DNA of 64,000 nucleotides, from contig LBWX01000002.1 in assembly GCA_000995065.1 (NCBI GenBank), positions 62,586 through 126,585 on the forward strand. Reading direction: 5' to 3'. The translations under genes were made by a program, and so were the position numbers. Positions 13,615 through 31,460 of the stretch are shown in pieces. Source of the stretch: a candidate division CPR2 bacterium GW2011_GWC2_39_35 (GTDB lineage: Bacteria; Patescibacteriota; CPR2). The notes below the pieces were generated by a model. That model was not told the origin of the DNA. It searched no databases and saw only the letters and a program-made list of their open reading frames with translations. The stretch's first letter is position 1; each line of letters begins with the position of its first letter.

Positions 13615-13818
13615 ATTCAATGATTTTGGGCGAAACCAGGGGGTTGGATTCAAACCTTTCCAAAAAACAAAAATGGCTCGTTAAAGCCATTGTCTTGCAG
13701 TTTGAATAACGCCTAACCCAGGGTTATTAATTTTGGTTTGAATCCTATTGGCTCCCCGGATCGGACTATCTTCGAACTTTTGGAGTATTTGTGCCTGTGT
13801 GCTAGTGCTTAATACTAA
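13615..13818 (+). repeat. composite intergenic repeat, full copy of subtype A with a subtype-B right end
   Basis: Near-identical to 11533-11680. It then continues TTGGCTCCCCGGATCGGACTATCTTCGAACTTTTGGAG...GCTTAATACTA, as in the copies at 15479, 17714 and 19539. Confidence 0.75.
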
Positions 13819-15270: not shown

Positions 15271-15545
15271 GAATTGACGCTTGCACTATACAATAAAGGG
15301 CTGTTTTTTCAATGATTTTTGACCCCGGATCGGACTATCTTCGAACCAAAAAAATGGCTCGTAAAAGCCATTCTAGATAAATTAAGTTATTTATTTGTGC
15401 AAATCTCGGAAATTATTCGAACTTTTATTTTAGCTCTACAAAGCCCTAAAACGGCTTAATTTCCAGTTTCTGCCACATTGGCTCCCCGGATCGGGCAATC
15501 TTCGAACTTTTGGAGCGGTTGTGCCTTTACGCATCTGCTTAAGCT
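15271..15545 (+). repeat. composite intergenic repeat, subtype B (about 270 bp) with two tRNA-end-like modules
   Basis: Contains TTGACGCTTGCACTATA, TTCAATGATTTT, GACCCCGGATCGGACTATCTTCGAACC, the hairpin AATGGCTCGTAAAAGCCATT and TTGGCTCCCCGGATCGGGCAATCTTCGAAC. It is a homolog of 19375-19620. Confidence 0.75.
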
Positions 15546-16550
15546 TATTGCTTCTTCTTTTTTACAACCTTTTTCTTTGCTATCTGAGCAGCCGAGAGTG
15601 CCGCTGTGTCAAAATCAGTGTCTAGACTTTTTGCTTCGTTTTTCTTGTACTCATCAAAATGCTTTTCCGCTGTTTCTACTGCTAATTCGTGCGATACTTT
15701 ACCAGCACTGGTTAAGATATCTCTGTCGTTTAGTTTTAAGAAGCCATGTAGTTTTTCTATCCAATCCTTCATATACATTGGCACGCGTCGCATAGCCTGG
15801 CCTTCAGCAAACACAAGATATTGCTCGACAAGGTTGTTAAGGGCAAGAAGTTCCGGCTCTGTCAAATAGTTTTTAGCAATCGTCACATCGTCTTTGCGAG
15901 GCTTCGTCCCCCGCCATGAAGTAAGTCCCATATATGGCCTTGTGCTATCGGCACGAGAACTTATAATCTCGGATGCAGTTTGACCGGTAATGGCGTAGTG
16001 GACTTTGTTTTGGACTGTTTTAAAAAACAGAATACTTGTTTCATCGGTCGGATCATAGTCAACGCTGGTCGCATAGATATCGGTGATCTTTCTGTAAAAG
16101 CGCTTTTCGGAAGTGCGTATATCCTGAATACGGAGAAGTAATTCTTCGAAATAGTCAAAGGGTAGATCTGGATTTTTAAGACGTTCATCGTCTAGCACAA
16201 AACCCTTTACGATATATTCACTTAAACGGGCAGTCGCCCATTGACGAAAAGCTGTTGCAATAGAGCTTTTAACACGATAGCCAACGGAGATGATGAGATC
16301 GCTCATTTTGAACTATTCGGAATTTCCGAATAGTTGAATCTTTGCTCAATTCTCCTTCTTGATAAATGTTCTTTATGTGTTCGTTAATGGTTGGAACGGT
16401 AACCTGAAAAAGCTCGGCCAAGAGTTTTTGCGTAAGCCAAACCGTTTCGCCGTCAAAACGGACATCGATTTTAGTTTGACCGTCTTCGGATTTATAAATG
16501 ATTAGTTGTGAGTTAGGATCATTTTTCATAATGGTAAATTCGCTTTGCAT
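15545..16550 (-). pseudogene. RhuM-family (virulence RhuM-like) gene split by a frameshift into 93-aa and 253-aa ORFs
   Basis: The N-terminal ORF (IIYKSEDGQTKIDVRFDGETVWLTQKLLAELFQ) and the C-terminal ORF (ISVGYRVKS...GFVLDDERLKNPD) together cover a RhuM-like protein. The two ORFs overlap at 16269-16306 in different frames. Confidence 0.6.
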
Positions 16551-16765
16551 TACTTTGCGCCCTCATTATACACCAGGCGTGCGTGGGCTAAAATGGTATT
16601 TTGTCGCGTTGGTCTTTTCCGGATAAAACATCATTCTTAGATTCGTATTTTTTGAAATATTTAGAGCCATTATGCTTATGTGGTGCCTAATAGATTCCTT
16701 TTGTCATTGACCGACTTATAATGGTTTAGTAAGTTGGTACTATAACAGCATAGCAAGAGGTCCAT

Positions 16766-17623
16766 ATGAAAAGCAAATCACGCCGTTATGAAATTATAAG
16801 GGAGATTGCAGTAACTACTCTGTGGTCAATCCTTGCAGGCATTCTAGGATTGTTTGTGGTGATGCTGATCGGCCTTCTGGTATTTAAAACCAAGAGGCTC
16901 CCACCCGAATCAACGTTTGTCTTTTTTGTAACCGTGTGGCTAGTTGTCTATTTAAGACTCAAAAAGAGCGGTAAAACCTTTGCAGATATAGGCCTTGGGG
17001 AAAAGGGGCTTTTTAGTCGCTCAACAATAGGTTTGCTTATCGGCGCCGGATTCATGACGGCTACCTTCGCCTTTCTTCTTTCCATAAAAGCCGTTACTTT
17101 TACAGAACACACAATTAGCTCTTCCTTAGCTATAATTCTTGTTTCAGGCCTTGCCTATAGCATGATTCAAGCTAGTGTTGAAGAAGTGTTATTTAGGGGC
17201 TATTTCTTAAATATCCTGGCCTGGAAGAATCGCCTATCAGCGATTCTTGTAACCTCTGCCTTATTTTCCTTCCTTCACTTCTGGCATGGTGTTCATCTTA
17301 TCGGCTGGCTCAACATATTCCTTTTCGGGGTGTTTGCTGCTCAATCATTTTATTTATTCAAGAGCTTGTGGGTGCCTATAGGTTTCCATATCGGTTGGAA
17401 TTACTTCCAGAAATATGTCTTCACCTTTCCGATTTATGGAAGCGATAACACAAGAGGACTGCTTGCTCTAAACGATGCAAACAAGGGTTTATTGAGTGGC
17501 GGTAGTTTTGGTCCAGAAGGAAGCATAATCATAACTCTATTGTTAGTAATGACTATTGGGCTAATTTATTGGCGACAAAAAGAAACATTAATTGCGGTAA
17601 ATCCTCGGCTTGCTCAAAACTAG
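16766..17623 (+). CDS. CPBP-family intramembrane metalloprotease (CAAX protease/Abi-like)
   Basis: EEVLFRGYFLN, FSFLHFWHG and downstream His motifs in a polytopic membrane protein. Confidence 0.8.
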   Translation: MKSKSRRYEIIREIAVTTLWSILAGILGLFVVMLIGLLVFKTKRLPPESTFVFFVTVWLVVYLRLKKSGKTFADIGLGEKGLFSRSTIGLLIGAGFMTATFAFLLSIKAVTFTEHTISSSLAIILVSGLAYSMIQASVEEVLFRGYFLNILAWKNRLSAILVTSALFSFLHFWHGVHLIGWLNIFLFGVFAAQSFYLFKSLWVPIGFHIGWNYFQKYVFTFPIYGSDNTRGLLALNDANKGLLSGGSFGPEGSIIITLLLVMTIGLIYWRQKETLIAVNPRLAQN

Positions 17624-17660: not shown

Positions 17661-17689
17661 AAAATGCCTTTACAGAAGGCATTTTTATG
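17661..17689 (+). terminator. rho-independent terminator of the CPBP gene
   Basis: AAAATGCCTT-tacaga-AGGCATTTT hairpin followed by TAT. Confidence 0.5.
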
Positions 17690-17713: not shown

Positions 17714-17790
17714 CTGGCTCCCCGGATCGGGCAATCTTCGAACTTCTGGAGCAATTATGCTTATGTGCTAGTGCCTAATAATTTGCATTT
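17714..17790 (+). repeat. composite intergenic repeat, partial copy (TTGGCTCCCCGGATCGGGCAATCTTCGAAC module)
   Basis: CTGGCTCCCCGGATCGGGCAATCTTCGAACTTCTGGAGCAATTATGC...GCCTAATAAT matches the right half of subtype B. Confidence 0.7.
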
Positions 17791-17801: not shown

Positions 17802-19235
17802 TTAGGGGATAAGATTATTGATGATCTTCTCCCCTAAGAATGAATAAATGCTTCCCTCTTTGTTGAAATCTATAGAATTATCGGCTACTAGTTCTGCAAG
17901 TGTCTGTCCAACTGCTACTTCCCATGGCTTAGAGCTTCCAGTGATGCCCACTAAATCGTTCCTAATGCTTTTAATATCATAATTCATCCGGTCAAAATCA
18001 CTTTCTTTAAACCCGGACATCACCAAGAAATTAGGGTGTGCTGTGTTAACATCGAGCCAATGTTCAATACCAGCCTGAAGCGCAGCCCAATCCATTCCAA
18101 GCTTACTCAGAACCTCATCAGTTAAGAGCAAATTTTCAGCATTTCTACATGATAGCTTCAACCGTACTACGGGCAGAATGTCATCTATCGTCCCATCGCT
18201 ATCATCTCGATCTCTTAACGAATAGGCCGTTGCATTGTCATAAACGGCTTGAATAATGTTCTTAGCTTCTTGTTCATAATCGTTCAGTTCACTAATCCCA
18301 CCAGTAGGGCAAGGATATACCTTGACTCTTCCATTTGATGACCGAACCGCTTGCTGCCATATACGCTCATCGTCTTCGCCCTCGACTAATAGCAATGGGG
18401 CTTCATTAAAAATGTTCGATAATGGATGTGCTCCAAAAACCGGCAGAATGCTTCTGTATACAGGAGTAATTGGTTTAAATTCTAAGCAGGTTTGCCCTGA
18501 CTTCATGAATGCGATATGAGCGTTATGTTGAGACTCTAGAGCCCCTAAAATTGCTGTACTATGTGTTGACAACACAATCTTAAATGCATTTTCTTCAACC
18601 AAATTTATAAGAAAATGCATTAGACGTACTTGCAAGTCTGGATGTAAATGAACGTCGGGCTCGTCAAGAAATAACATATTGTCTTTGTTCGGCACACATT
18701 CTTTGCTGAAAACTAAGCATTCGATACCTAAAGAGATTAATTCACTTTCCCCGCTACTAATCATCCCGGCATTAAGTTCTGTGTCATCTCCCTTTTGATA
18801 GATTTTAAAAGTGGTATCATCTCTCGCAATCCTGATATTATCAAGCAAGTCATTGATTTTATCTACATAAAGGTCAAATGTATAAGCATGATCGCTTCTT
18901 TTGCCTCTCTCTATCTCTCTTAATATCAACGTTTCCAACTTCCTGTACTGCACTACGCTTTGCTGTCTGAATTGGTTATATTGATTATTTCTACGGGTAT
19001 CGGGTAGCCATGAGGGGCTATCTGTTAAATTTTGTTCAATACCGGCTTCATAAATTAAGGATCCGCCTCGTTCGGGCGTTATATATTTAGCTTTACCAAA
19101 AGCAGGATTATTCGAAAGAAGGTTCTGCTCTACTGTTCTTATTAGCCTGCTCTTGCCACATCCATTTTTGCCGAGAACAATGTTAACGTTATTTAGATTT
19201 ATTAAGCTGTAACCACTGATATTAATAATTTCCAT
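17802..19235 (-). CDS. OLD-family ATP-dependent endonuclease (N-terminal ABC-like ATPase plus C-terminal TOPRIM), class-1-like and stand-alone
   Basis: Walker A (GKNGCGKSRL), Walker B plus H-loop (LFLDEPDVHLHPD...LSTHS), and a C-terminal TOPRIM-like LLLVEGEDDE. Confidence 0.75.
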   Translation of the reverse strand: MEIINISGYSLINLNNVNIVLGKNGCGKSRLIRTVEQNLLSNNPAFGKAKYITPERGGSLIYEAGIEQNLTDSPSWLPDTRRNNQYNQFRQQSVVQYRKLETLILREIERGKRSDHAYTFDLYVDKINDLLDNIRIARDDTTFKIYQKGDDTELNAGMISSGESELISLGIECLVFSKECVPNKDNMLFLDEPDVHLHPDLQVRLMHFLINLVEENAFKIVLSTHSTAILGALESQHNAHIAFMKSGQTCLEFKPITPVYRSILPVFGAHPLSNIFNEAPLLLVEGEDDERIWQQAVRSSNGRVKVYPCPTGGISELNDYEQEAKNIIQAVYDNATAYSLRDRDDSDGTIDDILPVVRLKLSCRNAENLLLTDEVLSKLGMDWAALQAGIEHWLDVNTAHPNFLVMSGFKESDFDRMNYDIKSIRNDLVGITGSSKPWEVAVGQTLAELVADNSIDFNKEGSIYSFLGEKIINNLIP

Positions 19236-19374
19236 AATTTCTCCATATTACTTGACTGTTTCGTCATCATCTAGTCCCTTGACTTAATCGTTATCTAAGA
19301 CATGTTCATTATACAGCAAACAGTTGTTCGATTATAGTTTAACAAAGCGGTTATGGACAAACGCTATATTAGCC

Positions 19375-19620
19375 AAATTTCAATGATTTTAGACCCCGGA
19401 TCGGTCAATCTTCGAACCAAAAAAATGGCTGTTCAGAGCCATTATCGATAAATTGGGTTATTTTTGGTCCAATCTTTTCCAAAAATTCGAACCGATATTT
19501 TAGCTCTACAGAGCCCTAAAACAGGCTAATTTACAGATTCTACCATATTGGCTCCCCGGATCGGGCAATCTTCGAACTTTTGGAGCGTTTGTGCTTATAT
19601 GCCAGCGCTTAATACTAAAT
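19375..19620 (+). repeat. composite intergenic repeat, full copy of subtype B
   Basis: Contains TTCAATGATTTTAGACCCCGGATCGGTCAATCTTCGAACC, the hairpin AATGGCTGTTCAGAGCCATT and TTGGCTCCCCGGATCGGGCAATCTTCGAACTTTTGGAGCG...GCTTAATACTA. Confidence 0.75.
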
Positions 19621-19625
19621 AAGAA

Positions 19626-20666
19626 CTAAGGTTTTTCAACCCTATCAATCATAAACTTAACTGTTTCATTCATATTGATTGGCTTTATAACAATATCCGG
19701 ATGTTTTGATTGAAACACTCTAAATATTTCATCAGCAAATGCCTGACCGATTGTAGGCACTTTGTCGAAGTCTAAAATTATAACCTTAAATTTTGACAAA
19801 TTTACCGTTACTCTTCTGGCCTGCGACCTTGAAACATAAATAGTACCCATGGCATATAGTTTGATTCTGATTTCTGTCTTATCAAAAGCCATTTCTTCCG
19901 AATCCGTTTGATATTTAGCAAAAACATCGCTGAGATGTTTCCCTGATTCGACTGAAATAGTAAACGTTACCCTAGTTCCTTTTTTGGCAGGCTTTATATC
20001 TTCGACAAAAACATCATTTATTAGATTATCTATTCTTAGCCGATATTCAAAACTATCCAAAACAAAGATATCTGCCGCTTTTGAAGTAAAAAAGATACCC
20101 TCGCCCGAATGAGCTTGAGGCGCCGTTGTTGTTTTGCCTTTTAAAAGATCCTGAATTGCTTCCAGTTCGGATTTTAAGCCTCTCTTTTTCATAATGTTTC
20201 TAAAAACCCCAATGCCAGAGTCCGAGATGGTAAACTTTAAATTATTATTCTCTTTAATAACTTCTATGTCGATTTCTGAAGACAGGGAATGCTCAATTGC
20301 ATTATTAAGCATCTCTGAAAACGCGAAAGTAAAGATGCTTAAAACATTCTCGGTTAGCTTGCCCAGGAAAGGCGTTTGTTTTTGGATTCGATCTAAAATC
20401 TCATGTTCCTGCAAATTAACATTTTTAAGTCTGATGTGGGTTCTATTTCTTAAAAGATCCGCATCCCGAGGAAGCGCATATTCGGTAAAACGACCGCCTC
20501 CAGAACGAATGAGTTCACCCTTTTGGACCAAGTCCTTTAATATCGAGGTAATATATTGCCTAGAAACCTCTATGTCTAAATTCGCTAAAATATCAGAAAG
20601 ACCAAGTTTTCCTTTTACATGTGCGACATTAAATATTGTTTGTGTCACTTTTTTCTTAATATCCAT
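19626..20666 (-). CDS. wHTH plus GHKL (histidine-kinase-like) ATPase plus C-terminal STAS-like (DUF4325-type) domain protein
   Basis: A winged-helix-like N-terminus, GHKL motifs (NNAIEH, DSGIG, GEG) and a C-terminal STAS-like fold (VIILDFDKV...). Confidence 0.55.
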   Translation of the reverse strand: MDIKKKVTQTIFNVAHVKGKLGLSDILANLDIEVSRQYITSILKDLVQKGELIRSGGGRFTEYALPRDADLLRNRTHIRLKNVNLQEHEILDRIQKQTPFLGKLTENVLSIFTFAFSEMLNNAIEHSLSSEIDIEVIKENNNLKFTISDSGIGVFRNIMKKRGLKSELEAIQDLLKGKTTTAPQAHSGEGIFFTSKAADIFVLDSFEYRLRIDNLINDVFVEDIKPAKKGTRVTFTISVESGKHLSDVFAKYQTDSEEMAFDKTEIRIKLYAMGTIYVSRSQARRVTVNLSKFKVIILDFDKVPTIGQAFADEIFRVFQSKHPDIVIKPINMNETVKFMIDRVEKP

Positions 20667-20772: not shown

Positions 20773-20822
20773 AGGATCGAACTTTTGGAGCAGTTGTGCC
20801 TTTATGCAACTGCTTAATATAT
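20773..20822 (+). repeat. composite intergenic repeat, partial right-end copy
   Basis: GGATCGAACTTTTGGAGCAGTTGTGCCTTTATGCAACTGCTTAATATA matches the right ends of the subtype-B copies. Confidence 0.6.
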
Positions 20823-21905: not shown

Positions 21906-22008
21906 TTGGGAGAAGATTGCTGAAGAATTAGAAATATTTCAAAGAATATCGCAATTTCAATTACAAAAAAATTAACATTCAAAAATTTCCTGCTAGATAA
22001 AATATGTC

Positions 22009-22413
22009 TTATCTTTTAGCTGAAGAGACTTTAAAAGTAGAGTGGTCTATATCAAATGCGAAAAAGAAAGCCATTCTATCATCGTTAGATAACCCAAAAA
22101 TAATTTTAAAAGCGCTTTTCCCATAGTCTACCCTAAAGAGATTCTTCTCATATCCGAACAAATTGACTAGCCTTTTACCCTCTTTGCTATTTGGCCTAAC
22201 CGGTTGAATGTCCGCCCCAACGCCTTTACTTTTTAGCTCCAATAAGCTTTCTGAGTCTATCAATGCGGAAATTAAATTTTTAACCTTAATAACGTGGGTA
22301 TCATCTAGATAAAGCTTTTCAACCGGAAAATGAGAATATTTATAATTAGAAAAACAAGGGAGAAAACCACGCTTTGCCATTTTATATATCGTTACTTTTA
22401 AAGTAGCTACCAA
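22009..22413 (-). CDS. putative toxin, RelE/ParE-like
   Basis: A 134-aa ORF downstream of and overlapping the Panacea-domain gene. The segment FRVDYGKSAFKIIFG resembles the RelE/ParE core. Confidence 0.35.
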   Translation of the reverse strand: MVATLKVTIYKMAKRGFLPCFSNYKYSHFPVEKLYLDDTHVIKVKNLISALIDSESLLELKSKGVGADIQPVRPNSKEGKRLVNLFGYEKNLFRVDYGKSAFKIIFGLSNDDRMAFFFAFDIDHSTFKVSSAKR

Positions 22414-22834
22414 TCTCAGCTTTCGGTATAATATTATTTTCCCCTTCTTGATAAAACTTATTCCAAGGCGTATTTGGCTTATGGGTTTGTTTTACTAAAA
22501 AAGAAGCAGAAAACTTACCAACATCTTCCCAAATCTTATTTAGAAAATCACCTAGTTGTTGGGATATATTTTGCGGTTCGGCAGGAACATCAAAAACAGT
22601 AATGGGGAAATTCCCACAACTTTTGAATGCACTATAAACATTTTTAACAACTGGGCCTAAGGCCCAAGCCTCTATTTCTTCATCAAAAATAGGATTCTTG
22701 TATTGAGCGATATATTTACCTTGAGCAAAATAAAGAAGCTTTTGAAGCTTTAAGTTTGTCAAATCGTTCTCGTCTATATGGCTTGCCAATACCACAAAAT
22801 AATTAGCTATGTCGATTGCATTTACTTTATCCAT
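22382..22834 (-). CDS. Panacea-domain (DUF4065, SocA/PanA-like) putative antitoxin
   Basis: KLQKLLYFAQGKYIAQY...EAWALGPVVKNVY matches the DUF4065/Panacea signature. Confidence 0.6.
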   Translation of the reverse strand: MDKVNAIDIANYFVVLASHIDENDLTNLKLQKLLYFAQGKYIAQYKNPIFDEEIEAWALGPVVKNVYSAFKSCGNFPITVFDVPAEPQNISQQLGDFLNKIWEDVGKFSASFLVKQTHKPNTPWNKFYQEGENNIIPKAEIGSYFKSNDI

Positions 22835-22977
22835 TTTTGTTTCCTCTACTAAAGCTTATTCTTATTAAATAATAATGCTTGTCTAATAAAATTATACTTT
22901 ATTATAGGAAAGATTTACAGAAATTCTATAATGCTATAATAATAACTAATAAGAATTAAATAAAGAAGTGATGAATT

Positions 22978-23766
22978 ATGTCTGACGAATTTAATGAAGG
23001 GCGATTTTCCGATGAGGAGCTAAAAGAATATGAAAAGATACATCAAATATATTTTGATAACAAGGGTTTTCAGAAAATGTGGAATTACTTTTTGGATATC
23101 ACCAAGAAAGAATACTTTAACGATGTTATAAAAGAGCTAAGAAAAAAATACGAAATTCCTCCGAACGGTTACAAGCCAGATGAAGACGGTTGCTATCGTT
23201 TTCCTCCACGAAACACAATTTTTGAAGACAATTTTCAAAAAGAACTAGCCCTTCGAAATGAAATAATCGAGAAAATATGTCGTAAATATCAACTTCATAA
23301 TTTCGATTTTTCTGACGTAGTGCTTCGTTATGTTTTTTATAATTATATTGAGTTATCAAACCAACTTGGAGCTTGCGGATTATTTATAGTATCCGATGTT
23401 ATTAAAGAAAAAGAAGACCCATTTAGTGAATTTGTTCAACAAAGCGATGATATGGCTTATCCTATTGCCATAAGAATAAGCCCTTATGCTAGCCAAAGAG
23501 ATTTAATTGATTTTATAAAAAACAAAATTGTTTGGAAAAAAGAAATTGAATTTTTGCAAAACAAATATAAGGACAAAAATATAAAAATTGGTAGAGTTAA
23601 AGCCAAAAACCAATCGACTCAGGAACGAAATGACTTTATATACCAAAATAGAGATAAAACATTAAAGGAGGTTAGGGAGCTTCTAGCCGATAAAAATATA
23701 TTCTTAGACGATGGACATATTGCAAAAATAATATCGCTTGAGAAGCAAAAAAGAAAAGAAGTGTAG
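22978..23766 (+). CDS. hypothetical protein
   Basis: A 262-aa ORF and the first gene of the co-directional block 22978-31427. Confidence 0.4.
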   Translation: MSDEFNEGRFSDEELKEYEKIHQIYFDNKGFQKMWNYFLDITKKEYFNDVIKELRKKYEIPPNGYKPDEDGCYRFPPRNTIFEDNFQKELALRNEIIEKICRKYQLHNFDFSDVVLRYVFYNYIELSNQLGACGLFIVSDVIKEKEDPFSEFVQQSDDMAYPIAIRISPYASQRDLIDFIKNKIVWKKEIEFLQNKYKDKNIKIGRVKAKNQSTQERNDFIYQNRDKTLKEVRELLADKNIFLDDGHIAKIISLEKQKRKEV

Positions 23767-23978
23767 TGCACAAGAAATGATATGTAACACATAAAGCTCT
23801 TATACTTATTTTTATCTATGAAATAACCTTTGGAATATAAGGTTATTTTTTATTTTAAAAACTATGGAAGAAACAAAGAGCGACAGATTAACAAACGAAA
23901 AACTTGAAGCCAAATACAATTTGACTGGCTTTTTTAAGTTGCTCTTAGAAATTGATATGAGAGTTAACCCACATTTAT

Positions 23979-24239
23979 ATGAAAATAACGGAAATACAAA
24001 TTATCCCGATCAAAGCAAATAACGGCTTAGTTGCCTTTGGCAGTGTTGTTATTAACGATAGCCTATATTTGGCTTCTATTGGGATACACAAGAAGAGAGA
24101 TGGGAGCGGTTATAGGATTACCTACCCCACTAAGAAAATCGGCAATAAAGATATGAATATTTTTCATCCAATCAATAAAGAAACAAGCAAACTAATTGAG
24201 GACGCAATAATATCAAAGGCTAAAGAAATATTAAATTAA
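23979..24239 (+). CDS. spoVG: SpoVG-family protein
   Basis: MKITEIQIIPIKANNGLVAFGSVVINDSLYLASIGIHKK..FHPIN aligns with SpoVG (MEVTDVRLRRV..GRMRAIASITLD..FVVHDIRVI....HPIN). Confidence 0.7.
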   Translation: MKITEIQIIPIKANNGLVAFGSVVINDSLYLASIGIHKKRDGSGYRITYPTKKIGNKDMNIFHPINKETSKLIEDAIISKAKEILN

Positions 24240-24271
24240 TTTAAAAATGTATTTAAGAAAAAAGTAATGAA

Positions 24272-25414
24272 ATGCTGGATACCATAATCTTACAAATTCA
24301 TATTGATAAGTGCTTTATGATTGACTTTAAAATGTTTAACACAACTAAAGAAGAAGTGTTTAATACGAAAACGTCATTTAAAAAATGGATGAATAATCCA
24401 ACGGCACAGGATAAAAAAGATGGGATTTATAAGCCTAGGCTGACGCTAATTAAAAGAGGTAGGGTATTTACTATAACGATTGAATTTTCTGCTCCAAAGA
24501 TAATTTTTAATAATAACTTAGACGAGTTAGAAGAAACTAATTTTGATAACGTTGTTAAAACATTACAGGAACGAATGAAAAGTATGGGAGTATGGATTTT
24601 GACGCTGAACATTGAAGAAGCTGATGTTTTATCTTTTCACCCGTCAAAAAACATAGCACTAAGCGGAGGCTATACGGCAAGTTTTGCAATAAGGGAATTA
24701 AGAAAAATAGATTTAAGTAAAAGGTTTGATCTTGACGAAAAGAAATTTAGAAATGGCGAAATTTTGCAGTTATATACCAAATCTCATTCCTTTGTTCTTT
24801 ACGATAAAATCAATGACCTTAAAAAACCTAAAAGCAGAGCAACAGACAAAGACCGGACACCTCAACAAATAGATTTGTTTGAATATATTCAGAAGGAAAA
24901 CAAAAGACTTGAAGTGTTGAGGCTAGAAGTAAGATTAAGCTCAAAACGAAAAATGAATGAACAATTGGAAAAACTGGGATATGCCCCAAATCCTCCGTTC
25001 AAAGAGATCTTTAAACAAGAATTATGCAAAAAAATTATTAACCAATACTGGAATGATTTTTTTAGCGACAACCAATTTATCTTTAACATCAATAGTAACC
25101 CACAAGATATATTACAGTTGATACTTCGGAGGTATCCAAAGATAAAAATTATAAAAGCTATCAATATTGTTGGCCTTTATTCGCTTTGTAGAGATGAGGA
25201 AGGAATGAGAGGATTTAGAAAAACAATTGATAGCCATAAACCCAAAAGCAATTGGGATACGGTAAAAAAATATATCAAGATGCTTGATGATGAAATTTTT
25301 GCTAATCCTACTTGGAAATTTATACCGGAAATAAAGCAACAAATTGATCGCTTTGAACCTTTTCGCACAGATAATTTATCCACAGAAAATGATTTGATGT
25401 GTAAAGAAAAGTAA
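24272..25414 (+). CDS. hypothetical protein (possible replication/initiator-like protein, guess only)
   Basis: A 380-aa basic protein with no confident motif match. The function is inferred from context only. Confidence 0.4.
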   Translation: MLDTIILQIHIDKCFMIDFKMFNTTKEEVFNTKTSFKKWMNNPTAQDKKDGIYKPRLTLIKRGRVFTITIEFSAPKIIFNNNLDELEETNFDNVVKTLQERMKSMGVWILTLNIEEADVLSFHPSKNIALSGGYTASFAIRELRKIDLSKRFDLDEKKFRNGEILQLYTKSHSFVLYDKINDLKKPKSRATDKDRTPQQIDLFEYIQKENKRLEVLRLEVRLSSKRKMNEQLEKLGYAPNPPFKEIFKQELCKKIINQYWNDFFSDNQFIFNINSNPQDILQLILRRYPKIKIIKAINIVGLYSLCRDEEGMRGFRKTIDSHKPKSNWDTVKKYIKMLDDEIFANPTWKFIPEIKQQIDRFEPFRTDNLSTENDLMCKEK

Positions 25415-25441
25415 AGTATAGTTTTATTTAGGTGTTATTAT

Positions 25442-27538
25442 ATGAACGAAGAATTTTATACAGCCCAAGAGCTAGCCGATAAACTAAAAGTCAATATAAT
25501 GACTATTTATAGGTATATTAACTCTGGGAAATTGAATGCTTATAAAACAGGCAAGGATTTTAGGGTTTCTAAAGAAGATTACGAAGTATTCCTAAAAAAT
25601 AAGCAAAGAAATTTGTTAGAAGAAAAAAATAACCAGATTTTGCAACTCTCCAAAGAGATTGAAAAGCTAAAAAGTAACATTAAAAAGCAAAGGTATGGAT
25701 TGGTTTGGGTAGATGTTCCGGAAGCTTTTGAGGACGATGTTGAAAATAAAATACCTATCCTTAAAGAAGAAAAATCTCTTGCTATTGAAAATAATGACGA
25801 TAAACCAACCCATCTTTTAATTGAAGGTGACAATTATCACGCCCTGACTTGCTTGAATTACACGCATAAGGGCAAGGTTGATGTAATCTATATTGATCCC
25901 CCCTACAACACGGGGAATGACGGATTTAGATACAAAGATAAGCGCATCCTTGATAAATACCCAGACGGAACAGATGTCCCCAAAGATAGCCCCTACAGAC
26001 ACAGTTATTGGTTATCATTTATGAAAAAGAGAATTGAGTTAGCAAAAACATTACTAACGAGCAATGGTGTTATGTTTATTTCAATCGGAAATGACGAAAT
26101 TGCACAATTGAAACTACTTTGCGATGAAATATTCGGGGAAAAAGATTCTCACAATATAATTCACTGGAAGAAGAACCAAAAACCACAGAACGCTTCGAAC
26201 ACAATTTCCGAATCTGCTGAGTATGTTTTAGTATATTTCAACGAGAAGCCTATTAAACTCGTTAGAGGTATGAAGGGAACAAGAACTGATGAAAGAGGTT
26301 CTTTTAAACCCTCTCCTCTCTTCACATTTGATGACAGAAAGAGAAGAACACAAACCGTGCCTAAAGGGACTCCAATTGAGTGCAAGGTATGGAAAAAGGG
26401 CAAACTTCAGGCAGTTAGGAATAAACTTGCCTATCTTAATATCCTTGATGAACCAATTATCAAAAATGGCATTCTGCAGAACGATGTAAGAGTAGATGGT
26501 CAGTGGAGAAAAACGGATACAAATGGTGAGTTTCAAAAAGTAGTAGAAGACAATCGCTTATTCGTTAACTCCAACGGCTTCCCAAATGAGAAGTCTTATC
26601 GTGACGAAGACTCTAAAAATGTTAATACCAATCTATGGCTTAATGCTGGCTATAATGAACTTGGAAAACAGTTATTAGATGAGATTTTAGGGCAAGACAA
26701 TGTTTTTCCTTATCCCAAACCCATAGAACTTATAAAAGAAATACTGAGATCAATAAACAAGCAAGATGCGATTATGCTCGACTTTTTCGCTGGTTCTGGA
26801 ACTTCAGGACACGCGCTATTAGACCTTAACAGAGAAGATGACGGCAAAAGACAATTTATATTAGTCACGGATAATGAGAACAACATAATGTCAGAAGTTT
26901 GCTACCCACGGATAAGAAATGTGATAAATGGATATGATTTTTCTGGAAAAGAGAAACAAGTCCTATTTGAAAAGACACTTACACTTACCGACCTAAAGAA
27001 AGCCGATGCTATATTGGAAGAAATTGACGGTATTACCAAAGAAAACGAAGAGTCAAAGAGGTGGGACAAGATTTCTAAGTCTATTAATGACGGCTTACTA
27101 AAGATGGTCGGAGAGAAGAACATTGAAGATAAGAAGGGTGGTCTTGGCAACTCCGTTAAGTTCTATAGGGCAGATTTCGTAGGTGAAAATAACATAATGC
27201 ACTCCACTGACAAAGATAAGTTAGAGTTAGCCTATAATGCTGGGGAATTATTAGCCATTGCAGAGAATACCCTCTATGAACAAAAGAAAAACCAATACTA
27301 TCAAATTTTTAAAGATAAAGATCGTTTTACTGCCATTTACTTCAGAGAAGAAATGGATGAATATGACGAGTTTATTGAAGAAGTTCGGGGCATTCGGGGT
27401 AAAGAAATCTCTGTTTATGTCTTTAGCTGGGAATCAGACGAGTCTATTTATGAGCTTGAGGACTTGAAAAATGTTCGAATAAAAACCATTCCTCAGCCAA
27501 TAGTAGAAATTTATAAACAAATTTATAACTTGATATAG
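25442..27538 (+). CDS. DNA methyltransferase (Type III Mod-like, beta-class N6A/N4C) with an N-terminal excisionase/MerR-type HTH
   Basis: N-terminal HTH (YTAQELADKLKVNIMTIYRYINSGKL), motif IV (DPPY, within VIYIDPPYNTG) upstream of motif I (DFFAGSGTSGHA). Confidence 0.8.
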   Translation: MNEEFYTAQELADKLKVNIMTIYRYINSGKLNAYKTGKDFRVSKEDYEVFLKNKQRNLLEEKNNQILQLSKEIEKLKSNIKKQRYGLVWVDVPEAFEDDVENKIPILKEEKSLAIENNDDKPTHLLIEGDNYHALTCLNYTHKGKVDVIYIDPPYNTGNDGFRYKDKRILDKYPDGTDVPKDSPYRHSYWLSFMKKRIELAKTLLTSNGVMFISIGNDEIAQLKLLCDEIFGEKDSHNIIHWKKNQKPQNASNTISESAEYVLVYFNEKPIKLVRGMKGTRTDERGSFKPSPLFTFDDRKRRTQTVPKGTPIECKVWKKGKLQAVRNKLAYLNILDEPIIKNGILQNDVRVDGQWRKTDTNGEFQKVVEDNRLFVNSNGFPNEKSYRDEDSKNVNTNLWLNAGYNELGKQLLDEILGQDNVFPYPKPIELIKEILRSINKQDAIMLDFFAGSGTSGHALLDLNREDDGKRQFILVTDNENNIMSEVCYPRIRNVINGYDFSGKEKQVLFEKTLTLTDLKKADAILEEIDGITKENEESKRWDKISKSINDGLLKMVGEKNIEDKKGGLGNSVKFYRADFVGENNIMHSTDKDKLELAYNAGELLAIAENTLYEQKKNQYYQIFKDKDRFTAIYFREEMDEYDEFIEEVRGIRGKEISVYVFSWESDESIYELEDLKNVRIKTIPQPIVEIYKQIYNLI

Positions 27539-27543
27539 GTAAT

Positions 27544-29922
27544 ATGAAACAATTTAATCCATTACAATTTCAGAGAGAAACAATCGATAAGTTATCAGAT
27601 ATTTTTGTTAAGTTATGGAAAGAAGACGGAAGAGCACTGCCTATTGTTTTAAAATCGCCTACTGGTAGCGGGAAGACTTTTATGGCTGCAAATTTAATTC
27701 GCAGCTTAAACCACCTTCCACAATGGCAAGAAGAAAAATCATTTATTTGGATCACGTTTAGTGACGATCTCTCTATGCAAAGTAAAAAGAAATTTGAAGA
27801 GTATTTTGAGAATAACCTTGAAAACAATTTGTTAACTGTAAATGAAATCAACAAGGGAAAGTTATCTAATAATGACATTATATTCCTTAATTGGCAAAAG
27901 ATAGTTTCTAAGAGTGCCGAAACTAGAGTATTAAGAAGGCCTGACGAGGAGATTATGCGAAAAGAGAAAGGGGCGTATTGGGAAGATTTTATTGATGGAA
28001 CTCAGGCCGATGAGAGGGAGATTATTCTTATTATTGATGAAGCCCATAAAAACAAAGGCACAACATTGGCTAAAGAGGTAATTGACTACATAAATCCTAA
28101 GATAATTCTGCACGTCACTGCCACCCCCAGTAAAGAAGATGCATTGGAAGCATATGAGCTTGGATCGATGATAAATGTTGATAGGAAAGAGGTTGTCGAA
28201 GAAGGATTGATTAAAGAAAAGATTGTCATTCAAACGGAAGAAGATCTTGAGAGGCATCAAGGGCAAGATTTTGATAAAGTCCTGCTTGATCTTGGAATCC
28301 AGAAAAGAAACGAACTAAAAGAAGAGTTAAAGTCTCTAGGTAAAGATATTAACCCTTTGATGCTTATACAATTACCTAATGATGACAATAAATTGATCGA
28401 GATGGCTAAGGAAACTAAAGAGTCTGTTGTTTGTGATTACTTAAAAGAAGTTGGAATCCCTGAAACAAAAATTGCTAAATGGTTTGATGGTAGACAGGAA
28501 AATATGGATTTAATAACTGAAAATGATAGTGACGTTGAAGTTATGTTATTTAAACAAGCGGCTGGGACTGGTTGGGACTGTCCCAGAGCCTCCGTCCTCA
28601 TAATGTTTAGGGAGATAAAATCAAATACATTTTATACCCAAACAGTTGGCCGAATATTAAGAATGCCTGAACCTGAATTAAAAGAGGATTATAAGAATAA
28701 CGAAAACTTGAGAACTGGTCATTTATATACCAATTACAAGCGTAATGAGGTTGAAATACCAGACCAATCAGCAAGGAACAAACCTTTTGTCAACTTTTCG
28801 AATATTAAAGAAGGCGTAAAAAATATTTCGTTACAGTCAGAGTATATTTCTCGAGTTGATTATGGAGACATCCCAAGATCTTATAAATTTCAAAAAGGCT
28901 TTATTGATTCGATGAATAGATATTTTGGTATAACGCAGGATGATATTTTGGGAAAAGCTCAAAGGAAATTAGAGAATAAGGGAATTGATTTAGATGGAAA
29001 GCTAACGAACCAGATTATTGTAAACGCAAAATTTGAAGATTTTGATCATTTGAATTATGAATTTAGTAAACAAGGTAAGGATCTTGAAATTGAAATGTCC
29101 ACTAATGATGTTGAGAAAACTTTTAATTATATCTGCTATCAACTTTTGCAGGAGCAAGACAACGAAAAAGCAAAATACACGAATATTGCAAGATCTTGGA
29201 GCACTATTAAATCGGCGATAAGAGTCTGGCTAAACCATACAGTTAGCGAGAATAGCGACCATTTTTATAGAATTTTTGTTAAGGACATAAATAAAGGTGC
29301 TTCAAGCAAATTTAGACCAGCAATAACACAAGCCTTGATTGACTTTAAGCCATTATGTGAACAAATAATCAACGAAAGAAAAGTTGCTCACGAGCAAAAG
29401 GAAGCACCTATTTTTTCTATTCAAGGTCAATATTCTTTCACTGAAGATTACGAAGAAATATCCCAGAAGATTTGCGCTCTCGGCAAATTTTATCTACCTA
29501 AAAAAGATTTTAAAGGAAAAAAGAACGAATTAGACTTTAAGGATTATATAGATAACCTAGATGATTCAATTGATTGGTGGTTTAAAAATGGAGATTATGG
29601 CAAATCTTATTATGCAATTAAATATTTTAATTCAACCGACAATAAGGAAGCTCTCTTTTATCCTGATTGGATAATTTTATTCAAAGATGGACGAATTGGG
29701 ATTTTTGATACCAAAGAGGGAGAAACTGCCAAATCTCAGGAGACTAAAGATAAAGCAGGCGCATTAGCACAAAAGTTAAATGATTTTGGATCTGGCTATG
29801 TTGGCGGTATTGTAGTTAAAGTTTCCGGAATCTGGTATTACAACGACACTTCAAGTTATGATTTCCGAGACGGTAATATTGAGCAAGATAAAAATTGGAA
29901 GAGATTTGAAGAGCTCTTATGA
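27544..29922 (+). CDS. Type III restriction enzyme Res subunit (SF2 helicase plus C-terminal PD-(D/E)xK nuclease)
   Basis: Helicase motif I (PTGSGKTF), motif II (IIDEAHKN), motif III (TATP), motif VI (QTVGRILR), and a C-terminal PD...D-x-K (YPDWIILFKDGRIGIFDTKEG). Confidence 0.75.
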   Translation: MKQFNPLQFQRETIDKLSDIFVKLWKEDGRALPIVLKSPTGSGKTFMAANLIRSLNHLPQWQEEKSFIWITFSDDLSMQSKKKFEEYFENNLENNLLTVNEINKGKLSNNDIIFLNWQKIVSKSAETRVLRRPDEEIMRKEKGAYWEDFIDGTQADEREIILIIDEAHKNKGTTLAKEVIDYINPKIILHVTATPSKEDALEAYELGSMINVDRKEVVEEGLIKEKIVIQTEEDLERHQGQDFDKVLLDLGIQKRNELKEELKSLGKDINPLMLIQLPNDDNKLIEMAKETKESVVCDYLKEVGIPETKIAKWFDGRQENMDLITENDSDVEVMLFKQAAGTGWDCPRASVLIMFREIKSNTFYTQTVGRILRMPEPELKEDYKNNENLRTGHLYTNYKRNEVEIPDQSARNKPFVNFSNIKEGVKNISLQSEYISRVDYGDIPRSYKFQKGFIDSMNRYFGITQDDILGKAQRKLENKGIDLDGKLTNQIIVNAKFEDFDHLNYEFSKQGKDLEIEMSTNDVEKTFNYICYQLLQEQDNEKAKYTNIARSWSTIKSAIRVWLNHTVSENSDHFYRIFVKDINKGASSKFRPAITQALIDFKPLCEQIINERKVAHEQKEAPIFSIQGQYSFTEDYEEISQKICALGKFYLPKKDFKGKKNELDFKDYIDNLDDSIDWWFKNGDYGKSYYAIKYFNSTDNKEALFYPDWIILFKDGRIGIFDTKEGETAKSQETKDKAGALAQKLNDFGSGYVGGIVVKVSGIWYYNDTSSYDFRDGNIEQDKNWKRFEELL

Positions 29923-31427
29923 AAGCAATAATCTTGGCCAGAGTTTCAACTGAAGAACAAAAGGAAGCAAATCACTCATTGCCAGCCCAATTAATAAGAT
30001 TGCAGAAATACTGCCAAGAGAAAAAACTGGATGTAGTTAAGGAATTTAGTTTTGACGAATCGGCTTGGAAAACCGAAAGGCAGCAGTTTGAGGAAATTGT
30101 TGAAATGCTTCAAAAATCAAAGGAAAAGATGGTTTTGTGTTGTGATAAGATTGATCGTTTAACAAGAAGCTTTAGTAAAGAATTAGTTACTCTAGAGGAT
30201 TTAAGAAGAACTGGCAAAATTGAACTACATTTTCCTTCTGATAATATCGTTTTGCATAGAGATTCACCTGCCACCGATTTATTTAGATTTACGATGGGCG
30301 TAAGCCTTGCCAAATACTATTCCGATACTACAAGCGATAATGTCAAAAGAGCCAACGAAACTAAAATTAAAAATGGCGAATGGGCTGGCTGGGCTCCAAT
30401 TGGCTACATCAATACAGAAGACGAAAAGGGTAATAAAGATATAGAAGTTGATGAGATAAGAAGCCCCTTTATTATAAAAATGTTTGAGCTATATGCTTCA
30501 GGTAACTATTCAATGAGGCAAATTAAAGAACAATTGGACAAGGTAGGACTAAAAAGCAAATCAAAAGACCCAAAACCCTTAACCATAAGTATGGTAAAAC
30601 ATACTCTAAACAACCCGTTCTATTACGGAATAATGAGGATTAAAGGCGAATTATATCCTCATAAATACCCTCCGCTAATTACTAAGCATTTATTTGATAA
30701 GGCCCAAGCGGTTAGTGCCGGATGGCATAAAAAACCCTTTAAATATGCCGCTAAGCCCTTTGTTCTTCGAGGCATGATAAAGTGTGCTGATTGCGGTTGC
30801 ACAATCACCCCTGAGACCTCTAAGGGGCATGCATATTACAGTTGCACCAACTATCACAGGATTCATCCAAAAAGGATTTACGTCAAAGAAGAAGACCTTT
30901 TAAAACAAATCTATGAAATTTTGGATAATATTCAATTAACAGACGAGCAAATAAAAGAGTTAACCGAGGACTTAAAGCAAACGAACAAAGCTGAGAACCG
31001 TTTCTTTAAGAACAGCGTTCAAGAATTATGGAAAGAATACAATAGATTTGAAAATCGTATTAGTAAGCTCACGGATGAAAAATATGACGGTAGTATTACT
31101 GAGGATTTCTACAACAAAAAGTTTAAGGAATATACTGAAAAACAATCTAAAATGATGGAAAGTATAAACAAACATCATAAGGCTAATCAAGAGCATCATA
31201 TTACTGCAAATAGTATCTTAAACCTTGCCAAACGAGCTCGTGAAATATTTGAAAGTTCTGAACCGGCAGAAAAAAGGCAATTATTAAATTACATACTTCA
31301 GAACCTAGAATTGAAGGACAAAAAACTCTTATATAAAGCAAAAACACCGTTTGATACGATGCTTTTGATACATGATAGTTCTAACTGGCTCCCGGGGTCG
31401 GATTCGAACCGACGACCAATTGGTTAA
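29919..31427 (+). CDS. large serine recombinase (resolvase-domain integrase)
   Basis: N-terminal resolvase catalytic region (AIILARVSTEEQ), a recombinase domain, a zinc ribbon (CADCGCTITPE...YYSC) and a coiled-coil C-terminus. The ORF overlaps the Res gene by 4 nt and runs into the tRNA-Asn gene. Confidence 0.85.
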   Translation: MKAIILARVSTEEQKEANHSLPAQLIRLQKYCQEKKLDVVKEFSFDESAWKTERQQFEEIVEMLQKSKEKMVLCCDKIDRLTRSFSKELVTLEDLRRTGKIELHFPSDNIVLHRDSPATDLFRFTMGVSLAKYYSDTTSDNVKRANETKIKNGEWAGWAPIGYINTEDEKGNKDIEVDEIRSPFIIKMFELYASGNYSMRQIKEQLDKVGLKSKSKDPKPLTISMVKHTLNNPFYYGIMRIKGELYPHKYPPLITKHLFDKAQAVSAGWHKKPFKYAAKPFVLRGMIKCADCGCTITPETSKGHAYYSCTNYHRIHPKRIYVKEEDLLKQIYEILDNIQLTDEQIKELTEDLKQTNKAENRFFKNSVQELWKEYNRFENRISKLTDEKYDGSITEDFYNKKFKEYTEKQSKMMESINKHHKANQEHHITANSILNLAKRAREIFESSEPAEKRQLLNYILQNLELKDKKLLYKAKTPFDTMLLIHDSSNWLPGSDSNRRPIG

Positions 31428-31460
31428 CAGCCAACTGCTCTACCACTGAGCTACCCGGGA
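31386..31460 (-). tRNA. tRNA-Asn (anticodon GTT)
   Basis: Minus-strand sequence TCCCGGGTAGCTCAGTGGTAGAGCAGTTGGCTGTTAACCAATTGGTCGTCGGTTCGAATCCGACCCCGGGAGCCA folds into a cloverleaf with GTT in the anticodon loop. Confidence 0.85.

Follow-up and report, generated by a model that had tools for sequence, protein, structure and literature searches.

ABC-type ATPases joined to TOPRIM nucleases recur in anti-phage systems, among them P2 Old, Gabija, retrons and PARIS. The class 1 OLD proteins, such as phage P2 Old, Thermus scotoductus OLD (TsOLD; PDB 6P74) and a Vibrio cholerae enzyme, attack phage or plasmid DNA directly. PARIS, also called class 4 OLD, pairs the ABC ATPase AriA with the DUF4435/TOPRIM tRNase AriB: insertions in AriA build a trimer-of-dimers propeller with Ocr-binding pores, and upon activation free AriB is released, dimerises and cuts tRNA (PMC11464382). 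A fused, single-gene AriAB is known bioinformatically (Rousset et al., 2022, PMC9122126); whether it differs from class 1 OLD, defined by Schiltz et al. through its context as a single gene without a conserved partner, has been called unclear, and the same review asks whether one such protein is enough for broad defence and how fused AriAB works (PMC10568477). Here we describe a gene of this kind in a 64,000-nucleotide (nt) stretch of contig LBWX01000002.1 from candidate division CPR2 bacterium GW2011_GWC2_39_35, hereafter the window. With a probability that we put at about 0.6, its 477-residue product is an ABC-ATPase/TOPRIM nuclease of the OLD/PARIS superfamily, self-contained in one polypeptide chain, and a compact relative of fused AriAB PARIS.

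The gene, its domains and its motifs lie in the window as follows.

17802–19235, minus strand: complete ATPase-TOPRIM gene, 477 amino acids (aa), ATG start, stop codon at 17802–17804, product 100% identical to a database protein
18516–19235, minus strand: N-terminal ABC-type ATPase domain, residues 1–240, assigned by Pfam AAA_15/AAA_21 matches above cutoff and invariant motifs
19149–19172, minus strand: Walker A, in the ATPase domain
18741–18758, minus strand: SSGESE, in the ATPase domain
18654–18677, minus strand: Walker B, LFLDEPDV, in the ATPase domain
18558–18566, minus strand: H-loop, THS, in the ATPase domain
18405–18446, minus strand: linker motif LPVFGAHPLSNxFN, residues 264–277, between ATPase and TOPRIM, recognised by its invariance across phyla
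17805–18404, minus strand: C-terminal TOPRIM domain with a helical extension, residues 278–477
18369–18395, minus strand: TOPRIM motif LLVEGEDDE (E285, D289)
18204–18212, minus strand: TOPRIM motif RDRD (D342, D344)
18132–18137, minus strand: TOPRIM motif EN (E367, N368)

A chance open reading frame (ORF) is ruled out by a database search, which returned the identical protein from candidate division CPR2 bacterium GW2011_GWC1_41_48, where the locus is present in several assemblies, together with more than 1800 homologues. A preliminary description of the window, made from its letters alone, had read GKNGCGKS, LDEPDVHLHP, STHS and VEGEDDE in this frame. All four are found in the translation, as Walker A (residues 22–29), Walker B (190–199), the H-loop (223–226) and the first TOPRIM motif (284–290), and are joined by an ABC signature that the description had not listed, SSGESE (160–165), by a DxD motif, SLRDRDD (D342, D344), and by an EN motif (E367, N368). 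Each of these motifs is invariant in 26 full-length homologues, K28, D191/E192 and H225 among the invariant residues. The ATPase carries every motif needed for ATP binding and hydrolysis as a head-to-tail dimer.

The N-terminal half matches Pfam AAA_15 (2.9e-16, 60.5 bits) and AAA_21 (1.2e-15, 58.8 bits) above cutoff, exceeding the thresholds of 32 and 27 bits, respectively, that are used to detect PARIS ATPases (PMC9122126). Matches to ABC-transporter families in Pfam and NCBIfam scans are only marginal, and the protein falls among nuclease-associated AAA_15/AAA_21 ATPases rather than transporters, an outcome that does not refute the preliminary description. In a search of all PDB sequences with the family profile, AriA ranks top (E 1.2e-9, 40 bits) and TsOLD is marginal (1.6e-3, 20 bits). 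The domain is short: Walker A and Walker B are 168 aa apart, where three AriA proteins have 278–357 aa and P2 Old has 267, and the remaining insert (residues 56–130) is conserved, yet poorly modelled.

The C-terminal half has no significant Pfam match, the best being DUF4435 at E 0.067, and its HMMER profile finds nothing meaningful among PDB sequences, AriB and OLD being too remote for HMMER. Its AlphaFold model (residues 241–477) is confident (pLDDT 87, pTM 0.85), with a TOPRIM fold and conserved metal-binding acidic residues. In 74 diverse members drawn from a scan of 185,579 species genomes, E285, G286, D342, D344, E367 and N368 never vary, and conservation of D288/D289 is 90% or higher, so that the conserved TOPRIM acidic residues on which the preliminary description had made its reading depend hold across the family; E285, D289, D342, D344 and E367 make up a complete two-metal acidic cluster. 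The only nuclease-family models to match these 74 C-terminal domains are Pfam DUF4435 (43/74, best 4.8e-5) and the PADLOC models AriB (43/74, best 8.8e-7) and AriAB (38/74): the PADLOC models for Old, GajA and retron OLD give zero matches, and no AbiL or MADS nuclease model matches the C-terminal domain at E<=0.01. Between the two halves, linker residues P265, F267, G268, A269, H270, P271 and L272 are invariant in the same 74 sequences; residues 269–277 have pLDDT below 50 in the predicted model, and the motif may be a regulatory or interface element. Full-length Foldseek against PDB places OLD-type proteins, Eco8 OLD and GajA at the top (the last two at E 1e-8 to 1e-9); it was set aside as a classifier of the nuclease domain since the ATPase dominates the comparison (TM-scores 0.2–0.36), and the C-terminal half was re-modelled alone instead.

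Placement of the whole protein leans the same way. Its best PADLOC model is the fused AriAB PDLC02981 (7.6e-19), aligned over residues 151–396 and thus across the domain junction, with the AriAB profile entering only from position 302 of 694. The score is 65.8 bits against published AriAB thresholds of 80 (AAA_15+DUF4435) or 20 (AAA_21+DUF4435), and PDLC02981 may be either. The PARIS threshold of 27 bits for DUF4435 (PF14491; PMC9122126) is not reached by the target (13.3–13.4 bits), and the 43 of 74 members that match do so below it; this test is insensitive, as genuine AriB relatives of locus L116 also mostly lack a precomputed PF14491 match. On the OLD side, the OLD-like TOPRIM family PF20469 is present in 120/120 P2 Old relatives listed, and PF11398 (DUF2813) in most, whereas neither occurs in any of the 120 family members listed (0/120), nor in the target or the 74 C-terminal domains by direct hmmscan. 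For profile-profile comparison with hhalign, 100 relatives of AriB and 114 of P2 Old were made into profiles. The profile of the family's C-terminal domain aligns with AriB at E 0.0066 over 94 columns with all three catalytic motifs in register (VEGEDD/VEGRDD, RDRD/CDRE and AENLL/LENYF), corresponding to the AriB catalytic residues E26/D30, D88/E90 and E122 (PMC11464382); with P2 Old it reaches E 0.025 and only the first motif is aligned. These values are weak, AriB against Old itself giving 0.036. Alignments of the family profile to single AriB-like or P2 Old sequences had not been significant (E 0.05–0.33) and were replaced by these profile-profile runs, themselves still weak.

Taken on sequence, where the similarities of both halves to PARIS are all weak, the family leans towards a separate, divergent branch of the OLD/PARIS clade that lies nearer PARIS than class 1 OLD; at curated thresholds it does not demonstrably belong to either. 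The preliminary description had called the protein a stand-alone OLD-superfamily ATPase-TOPRIM of class 1 type. The first part stands, but "class-1-like" holds for the single-gene context only, and the protein seems better described as compact fused-PARIS-like (class 4-like) or as a separate branch. This branch is compact, discrete and widely distributed, and curated Pfam nuclease models miss it.

With PARIS the target shares an AAA_15/AAA_21 ATPase bearing the SSGE signature, TOPRIM E-x3-D, D-x-D/E and EN motifs in the AriB register, and an AriAB model that spans the junction; some family members lie in restriction-modification (RM) operons, which would suit an anti-anti-restriction guard. 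It differs in size (477 aa versus ~770 aa for AriA plus AriB, or the 694 positions of the AriAB model), in lacking most of the AriA insertion that supplies the hexameric propeller and trigger-binding pores, in a DUF4435 score below the Pfam cutoff, and in the linker motif PVFGAHPLS, which has no described counterpart; being covalently fused, it cannot be activated by letting go of a free AriB dimer. Gabija GajA (class 2 OLD) and retron Eco8-type proteins (class 3 OLD) also combine ABC ATPase and TOPRIM and appear among the full-length Foldseek matches. By contrast, no UvrD-like helicase, reverse transcriptase or non-coding RNA lies near the target in the window or at homologue loci, GajA and retron OLD models do not match its C-terminal domain, and the NCBIfam Eco8 effector model gives 33.7 bits versus a cutoff of 250. 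AbiL/MADS-type pairs likewise join an AAA_21-type ATPase to a DUF4435-like TOPRIM, and the target ATPase matches mad8 (9.6e-11), but these are multi-gene systems and the target is a single gene.

An exhaustive HMMER search of 1.84 billion representatives, in clusters defined at 50% identity, yields 220 family clusters at E<=1e-30, rising to 377 at 1e-10; almost all measure 470–500 aa, with end-to-end coverage down to ~30% identity. The species genomes contain 182 relatives at 42–65% identity, and the family, rare per genome, extends over most bacterial phyla: Patescibacteria, Proteobacteria (Halomonas, Legionella, Paraburkholderia, E. coli), Cyanobacteria, Actinomycetota, Bacteroidota, Planctomycetota and others. 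Such a patchy distribution agrees with horizontal transfer. Members are annotated only as "AAA family ATPase", and the family is therefore probably under-counted in defence surveys. Longer forms are rare: P0226 and P0238 (~880 aa) have a much larger ATPase insert and may bridge to full-size AriAB, and P0218 (1153 aa) carries an N-terminal Ulp1/RickCE-like cysteine protease domain fused to the family protein. As hints to function, domain fusions gave only these larger inserts and the one Ulp1-like fusion.

The preliminary description had found no UvrD-like helicase, the Gabija partner, and no other partner beside the gene, and this is borne out beyond the window. The neighbours are unrelated, and when 435 ORFs within three genes of a homologue were clustered, no neighbour family recurred in more than 4 of ~85 loci. 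No same-strand neighbour lies within 50 nt at 53 of 84 loci. A GajB-type (UvrD/PcrA/Rep-like) helicase is not adjacent in the window, and none recurs among 296 neighbour proteins at positions ±1 and ±2, where, as in the window, there is no reverse transcriptase either. Among the same 296 proteins, DNA methyltransferase or restriction families mark about one locus in eight, and resolvases, integrases or transposases about 10 loci. Where RM genes do occur, the arrangement can be intimate: at L011 and L012 the homologue is enclosed by the Mod (N6_N4_Mtase) and Res (ResIII/SWI2_SNF2) of a type III-like system, the gaps being ~12 nt; at L018 the order is Mod, homologue, RhuM-Fic, Res; at L009 it is C5 methyltransferase, a 346-aa ORF, Vsr, homologue; and at L007 and L016 the homologue adjoins MmeI/Eco57I-type enzymes. 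Loci L011 and L018 suggest RM operons as carriers of accessory defence genes. Three loci outside the window serve as reference points.

L011, 3569–10449: type III-like RM operon with the homologue alone inserted
L018, 3615–11521: type III-like RM operon with the homologue and RhuM-Fic inserted
L115, 12033–13502 (E. coli UPEC132 chromosome NZ_CP040456.1): E. coli member WP_000868467.1, solitary, between yfgI and guaA

The E. coli member, at 35% identity, is present in 28 of 5426 complete genomes (0.5%); beside it lie an orphan response regulator and the remnant of a transposase. Relatives also occur on five IMG/VR contigs of prophage type, in the vicinity of a tyrosine integrase, primase-like genes or a tail-fibre chaperone domain, and at L108, L109 and L112 relatives stand at the edges of integrative elements or prophages. 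Members are often found beside RM genes or genes of mobile elements. The overall picture is of an accessory gene with a defence-island flavour, not of an obligate RM component. As a separate observation, at L015 (3225–5137) the first two called genes upstream of the homologue, ~860 nt away from it, encode a LigT-type 2'-5' RNA ligase and a CCA-adding enzyme, both of tRNA repair; this is a single case that could be chance, notable given that AriB targets tRNA.

How such a protein might act can be sketched by analogy. It would be a one-protein anti-phage sensor-effector, in which the ATPase head keeps the nuclease inactive until a phage-derived cue shifts the nucleotide state or conformation of the ATPase and frees the nuclease. 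The cue might be an anti-restriction protein, on the analogy with PARIS and from the RM-embedded members. The TOPRIM domain would then cut nucleic acid, either tRNA, slightly favoured because the target motifs resemble those of AriB, or DNA, as its OLD-like architecture would allow, and as a result the infected cell would be arrested or the invader destroyed. With most of the AriA insertion missing from the target, the details of sensing must be other than in PARIS; covalent fusion together with the missing insertion means that it cannot work in the same way. A functional ATPase-TOPRIM nuclease of the OLD/PARIS clade is very likely. A role in defence, plausible from the family, its patchy distribution and its context, is rather probable, and behaviour specifically like that of PARIS is doubtful.

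Were the family a distinct minimal class of OLD/PARIS-type immunity, a single chain of ~480 aa that is sensor and effector at once, does without the AriA scaffold and is often built into RM operons as a guard, firing, perhaps by tRNA cutting, when a phage neutralises restriction, it would be the smallest known ATPase-TOPRIM defence module, with gating unlike that of PARIS, Gabija or P2 Old. This we offer as a speculative and, on balance, unlikely extension. The family could address the questions raised for single-protein systems (PMC10568477), being compact, highly conserved, single-gene and spread across phyla that include reduced-genome CPR bacteria. That some genomes have it inside type III RM operons suggests a testable connection of restriction with a back-up nuclease. 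As a lead for experiments the family is reasonable, above all because of its natural E. coli member, a convenient model.

Around the gene, the window contains the following neighbours, signals and repeats.

16766–17623, plus strand: CPBP/Rce1-like membrane protease gene, convergent with the target
17661–17687, no strand assigned: palindromic hairpin (AAAATGCCTT..AAGGCATTTT) between the convergent target and CPBP genes, read from the sequence, one arm being a listed inverted repeat
17715–17780, plus strand: 66-nt repeat module just 3' of the target stop, 88% identical to the copy at 19549–19614
19331–19360, minus strand: promoter-like site TTGTCC-18-TATAAT, ~95 nt ahead of the start codon, in the space that separates the gene from the upstream repeat
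19378–19620, plus strand: ~240-nt composite repeat upstream of the target and 3' of the HATPase-DUF4325 gene, 84–87% identical to the composite at 15307–15544
19626–20666, minus strand: gene joining HATPase_c, a histidine-kinase-like ATPase domain, to a STAS-like DUF4325 at the C terminus, with no PADLOC match; it adjoins the target on the upstream side, within one repeat array
13746–13818, 15307–15544, 16664–16702 (partial), 17715–17780, 19378–19620 and 20777–20819 (partial): repeat copies, all in a single orientation

The hairpin at 17661–17687 probably serves the target and the CPBP gene alike as a bidirectional terminator. The promoter-like site agrees with the consensus at 10 of 12 positions and is a consensus match only, from a scan not validated for CPR promoters. 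The target gene appears to be its own transcription unit. The composite at 19378–19620 holds two copies of a 24-nt core, of which the window has six against none expected from shuffles, and a terminator-like hairpin (19424–19443, minus strand) followed by a T-run. Every full repeat copy lies directly 3' of a minus-strand gene, the housekeeping gene purD included. The same repeat recurs at 1–2 kb spacing in nine other metagenome contigs (L099, L102 and L104 among them), where it separates unrelated small genes for membrane proteins, SnoaL-like and HxlR proteins, a methyltransferase and an IS66 transposase; it is found at none of 92 homologue loci in other organisms. The repeat is accordingly to be ascribed to the host lineage and not to the ATPase-TOPRIM gene: a host-lineage intergenic element, in part a terminator, it is no component of the system, though it may mark a cassette-like array. 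Two other identities for it were considered and dropped. The minus strand contains GGTTCGAA-like pieces that could recall a tRNA or tmRNA 3' fragment acting as an att site, yet neither ARAGORN nor Rfam, at gathering cutoffs or at E<=5, matches the repeat, Rfam being empty over 13.5–21 kb of the window; and an attC or structured RNA finds no support in its folding, which on both strands is no better than for shuffled controls (z 0.2–0.7).

The resemblance to class 1 OLD has to be weighed against that to AriAB. A compact class 1 nuclease would be an ATP-dependent DNA exonuclease or nickase that attacks phage or plasmid DNA directly, not a trigger-released tRNase. The domain order, single-gene context and acidic two-metal site are the same, the full-length profiles of the family and of P2 Old align colinearly through the junction (probability 95%, E 4.4e-8), the Walker B–VEG spacing is 94 aa versus 99 aa in P2 Old, the top Foldseek matches are of OLD type, and the distinction from fused AriAB is itself called unclear (PMC10568477). 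Yet the target is ~100 aa shorter, with a much reduced dimerisation insert, and the family lacks PF20469 and PF11398; no PADLOC Old, GajA or retron OLD model matches a C-terminal domain, AriB/AriAB models matching about half; AriA scores ~20 bits above TsOLD for the ATPase; for the second and third catalytic motifs only AriB offers an aligned counterpart; and the SSGE signature, common to AriA, is not found in P2 Old by pattern. We regard a class 1 enzyme as rather unlikely, and less likely still an accessory or repair factor with no stand-alone defence role, for example an RM-assisting or regulating nuclease or a RecF/SbcC-type DNA-end processor. The tight Mod-Res insertions at L011 and L018 would fit a subunit-like role, and a weak match to the NCBIfam "restriction system-associated AAA family ATPase" (1.3e-5, far under cutoff) would agree. 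The housekeeping surroundings of many loci and the host-like GC content of the window gene speak for such a factor too. Against it stand the rarity and patchiness of the gene (182 of 185,579 species genomes, 0.5% of E. coli genomes), its high identity across phyla, which fits a horizontally moving accessory gene rather than core repair, and the finding that all detectable relatives are defence proteins (PADLOC); ~85–90% of loci have no RM gene within two genes, and the protein is therefore not an obligate RM subunit. Some findings count against the reading as a compact AriAB-like defence nuclease: besides the colinearity with P2 Old, RM genes lie within two genes at only about one-eighth of loci, many loci sit amid housekeeping genes (L013, L015, L017), the GC content of the window gene is host-like, there are zero matches in 50,697 deposited phage genomes and one in 72,556 plasmid records, that record really being an E. 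coli chromosome, and searches of the literature library found no experimental work on any family member, on fused PARIS/AriAB or on WP_000868467.1.

Two further proposals concern the locus itself. The HATPase_c+DUF4325 gene shares strand, adjacency and repeat array with the target, which could suggest a two-gene system in the CPR2 genome; the pairing is limited to the CPR2 lineage, is foreign to the ~85 loci, where no neighbour family recurs in more than 4, and is interrupted by 390 nt containing a terminator-like hairpin and the promoter-like site, all of which make it very improbable. The preliminary description had further taken the flanking repeat for the mark of a mobile anti-phage or anti-plasmid cassette. 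The repeat does flank the gene on both sides, but the mobility drawn from it does not hold up well. For a single-gene cassette bounded by recombination sites, in an integron-like or CALIN-like array, speak the direct repeats in one orientation that separate single genes from 13.7 to 20.8 kb, the similar arrays with other small genes in L099, L102 and L104, and the two ~240-nt composites that bracket a 3.8-kb block with RhuM, CPBP and the target. However, a copy lies behind purD as well, and the repeat includes terminator-like hairpins, matches no Rfam family or tRNA, does not fold as attC would and flanks no homologue elsewhere; no integron integrase adjoins the array, the sole recombinase is a serine recombinase 10 kb off in a separate low-GC element, gene order is the same in six closely related assemblies, and the GC content of the target (0.393) equals the window average (0.389). 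A mobile cassette is accordingly improbable.

Two other parts of the window deserve mention. The RhuM-family gene at 15545–16550 (minus strand) is split into overlapping ORFs of 253 aa and 93 aa, whereas in other assemblies of the same organism it is intact (348 aa; L001, 12686–13732), so that the split reflects a frameshift or else a difference of sequencing or strain. In PADLOC, RhuM hits the candidate PDC-S05, and it is a RhuM-Fic gene that adjoins the target homologue in L018. Farther off, a low-GC block (0.335) spans ~22000–31460 and contains the following features.

22009–22413, minus strand: 134-aa ORF with no family match
22382–22834, minus strand: SocA/Panacea-domain antitoxin-like gene, overlapping the 134-aa ORF
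25442–27538: Mod, type III-like, N6_N4_Mtase with a helix-turn-helix (HTH), in the low-GC block
27544–29922: Res, ResIII/SWI2_SNF2, in the low-GC block
29919–31427: large serine recombinase that closes the low-GC block, the 3' end overlapping tRNA-Asn (31386–31460, minus strand)

This block looks like an integrated mobile element carrying an RM system and is separate from the repeat array of the target; its ORFs at 22009–22834 are probably a Panacea-type toxin-antitoxin pair.

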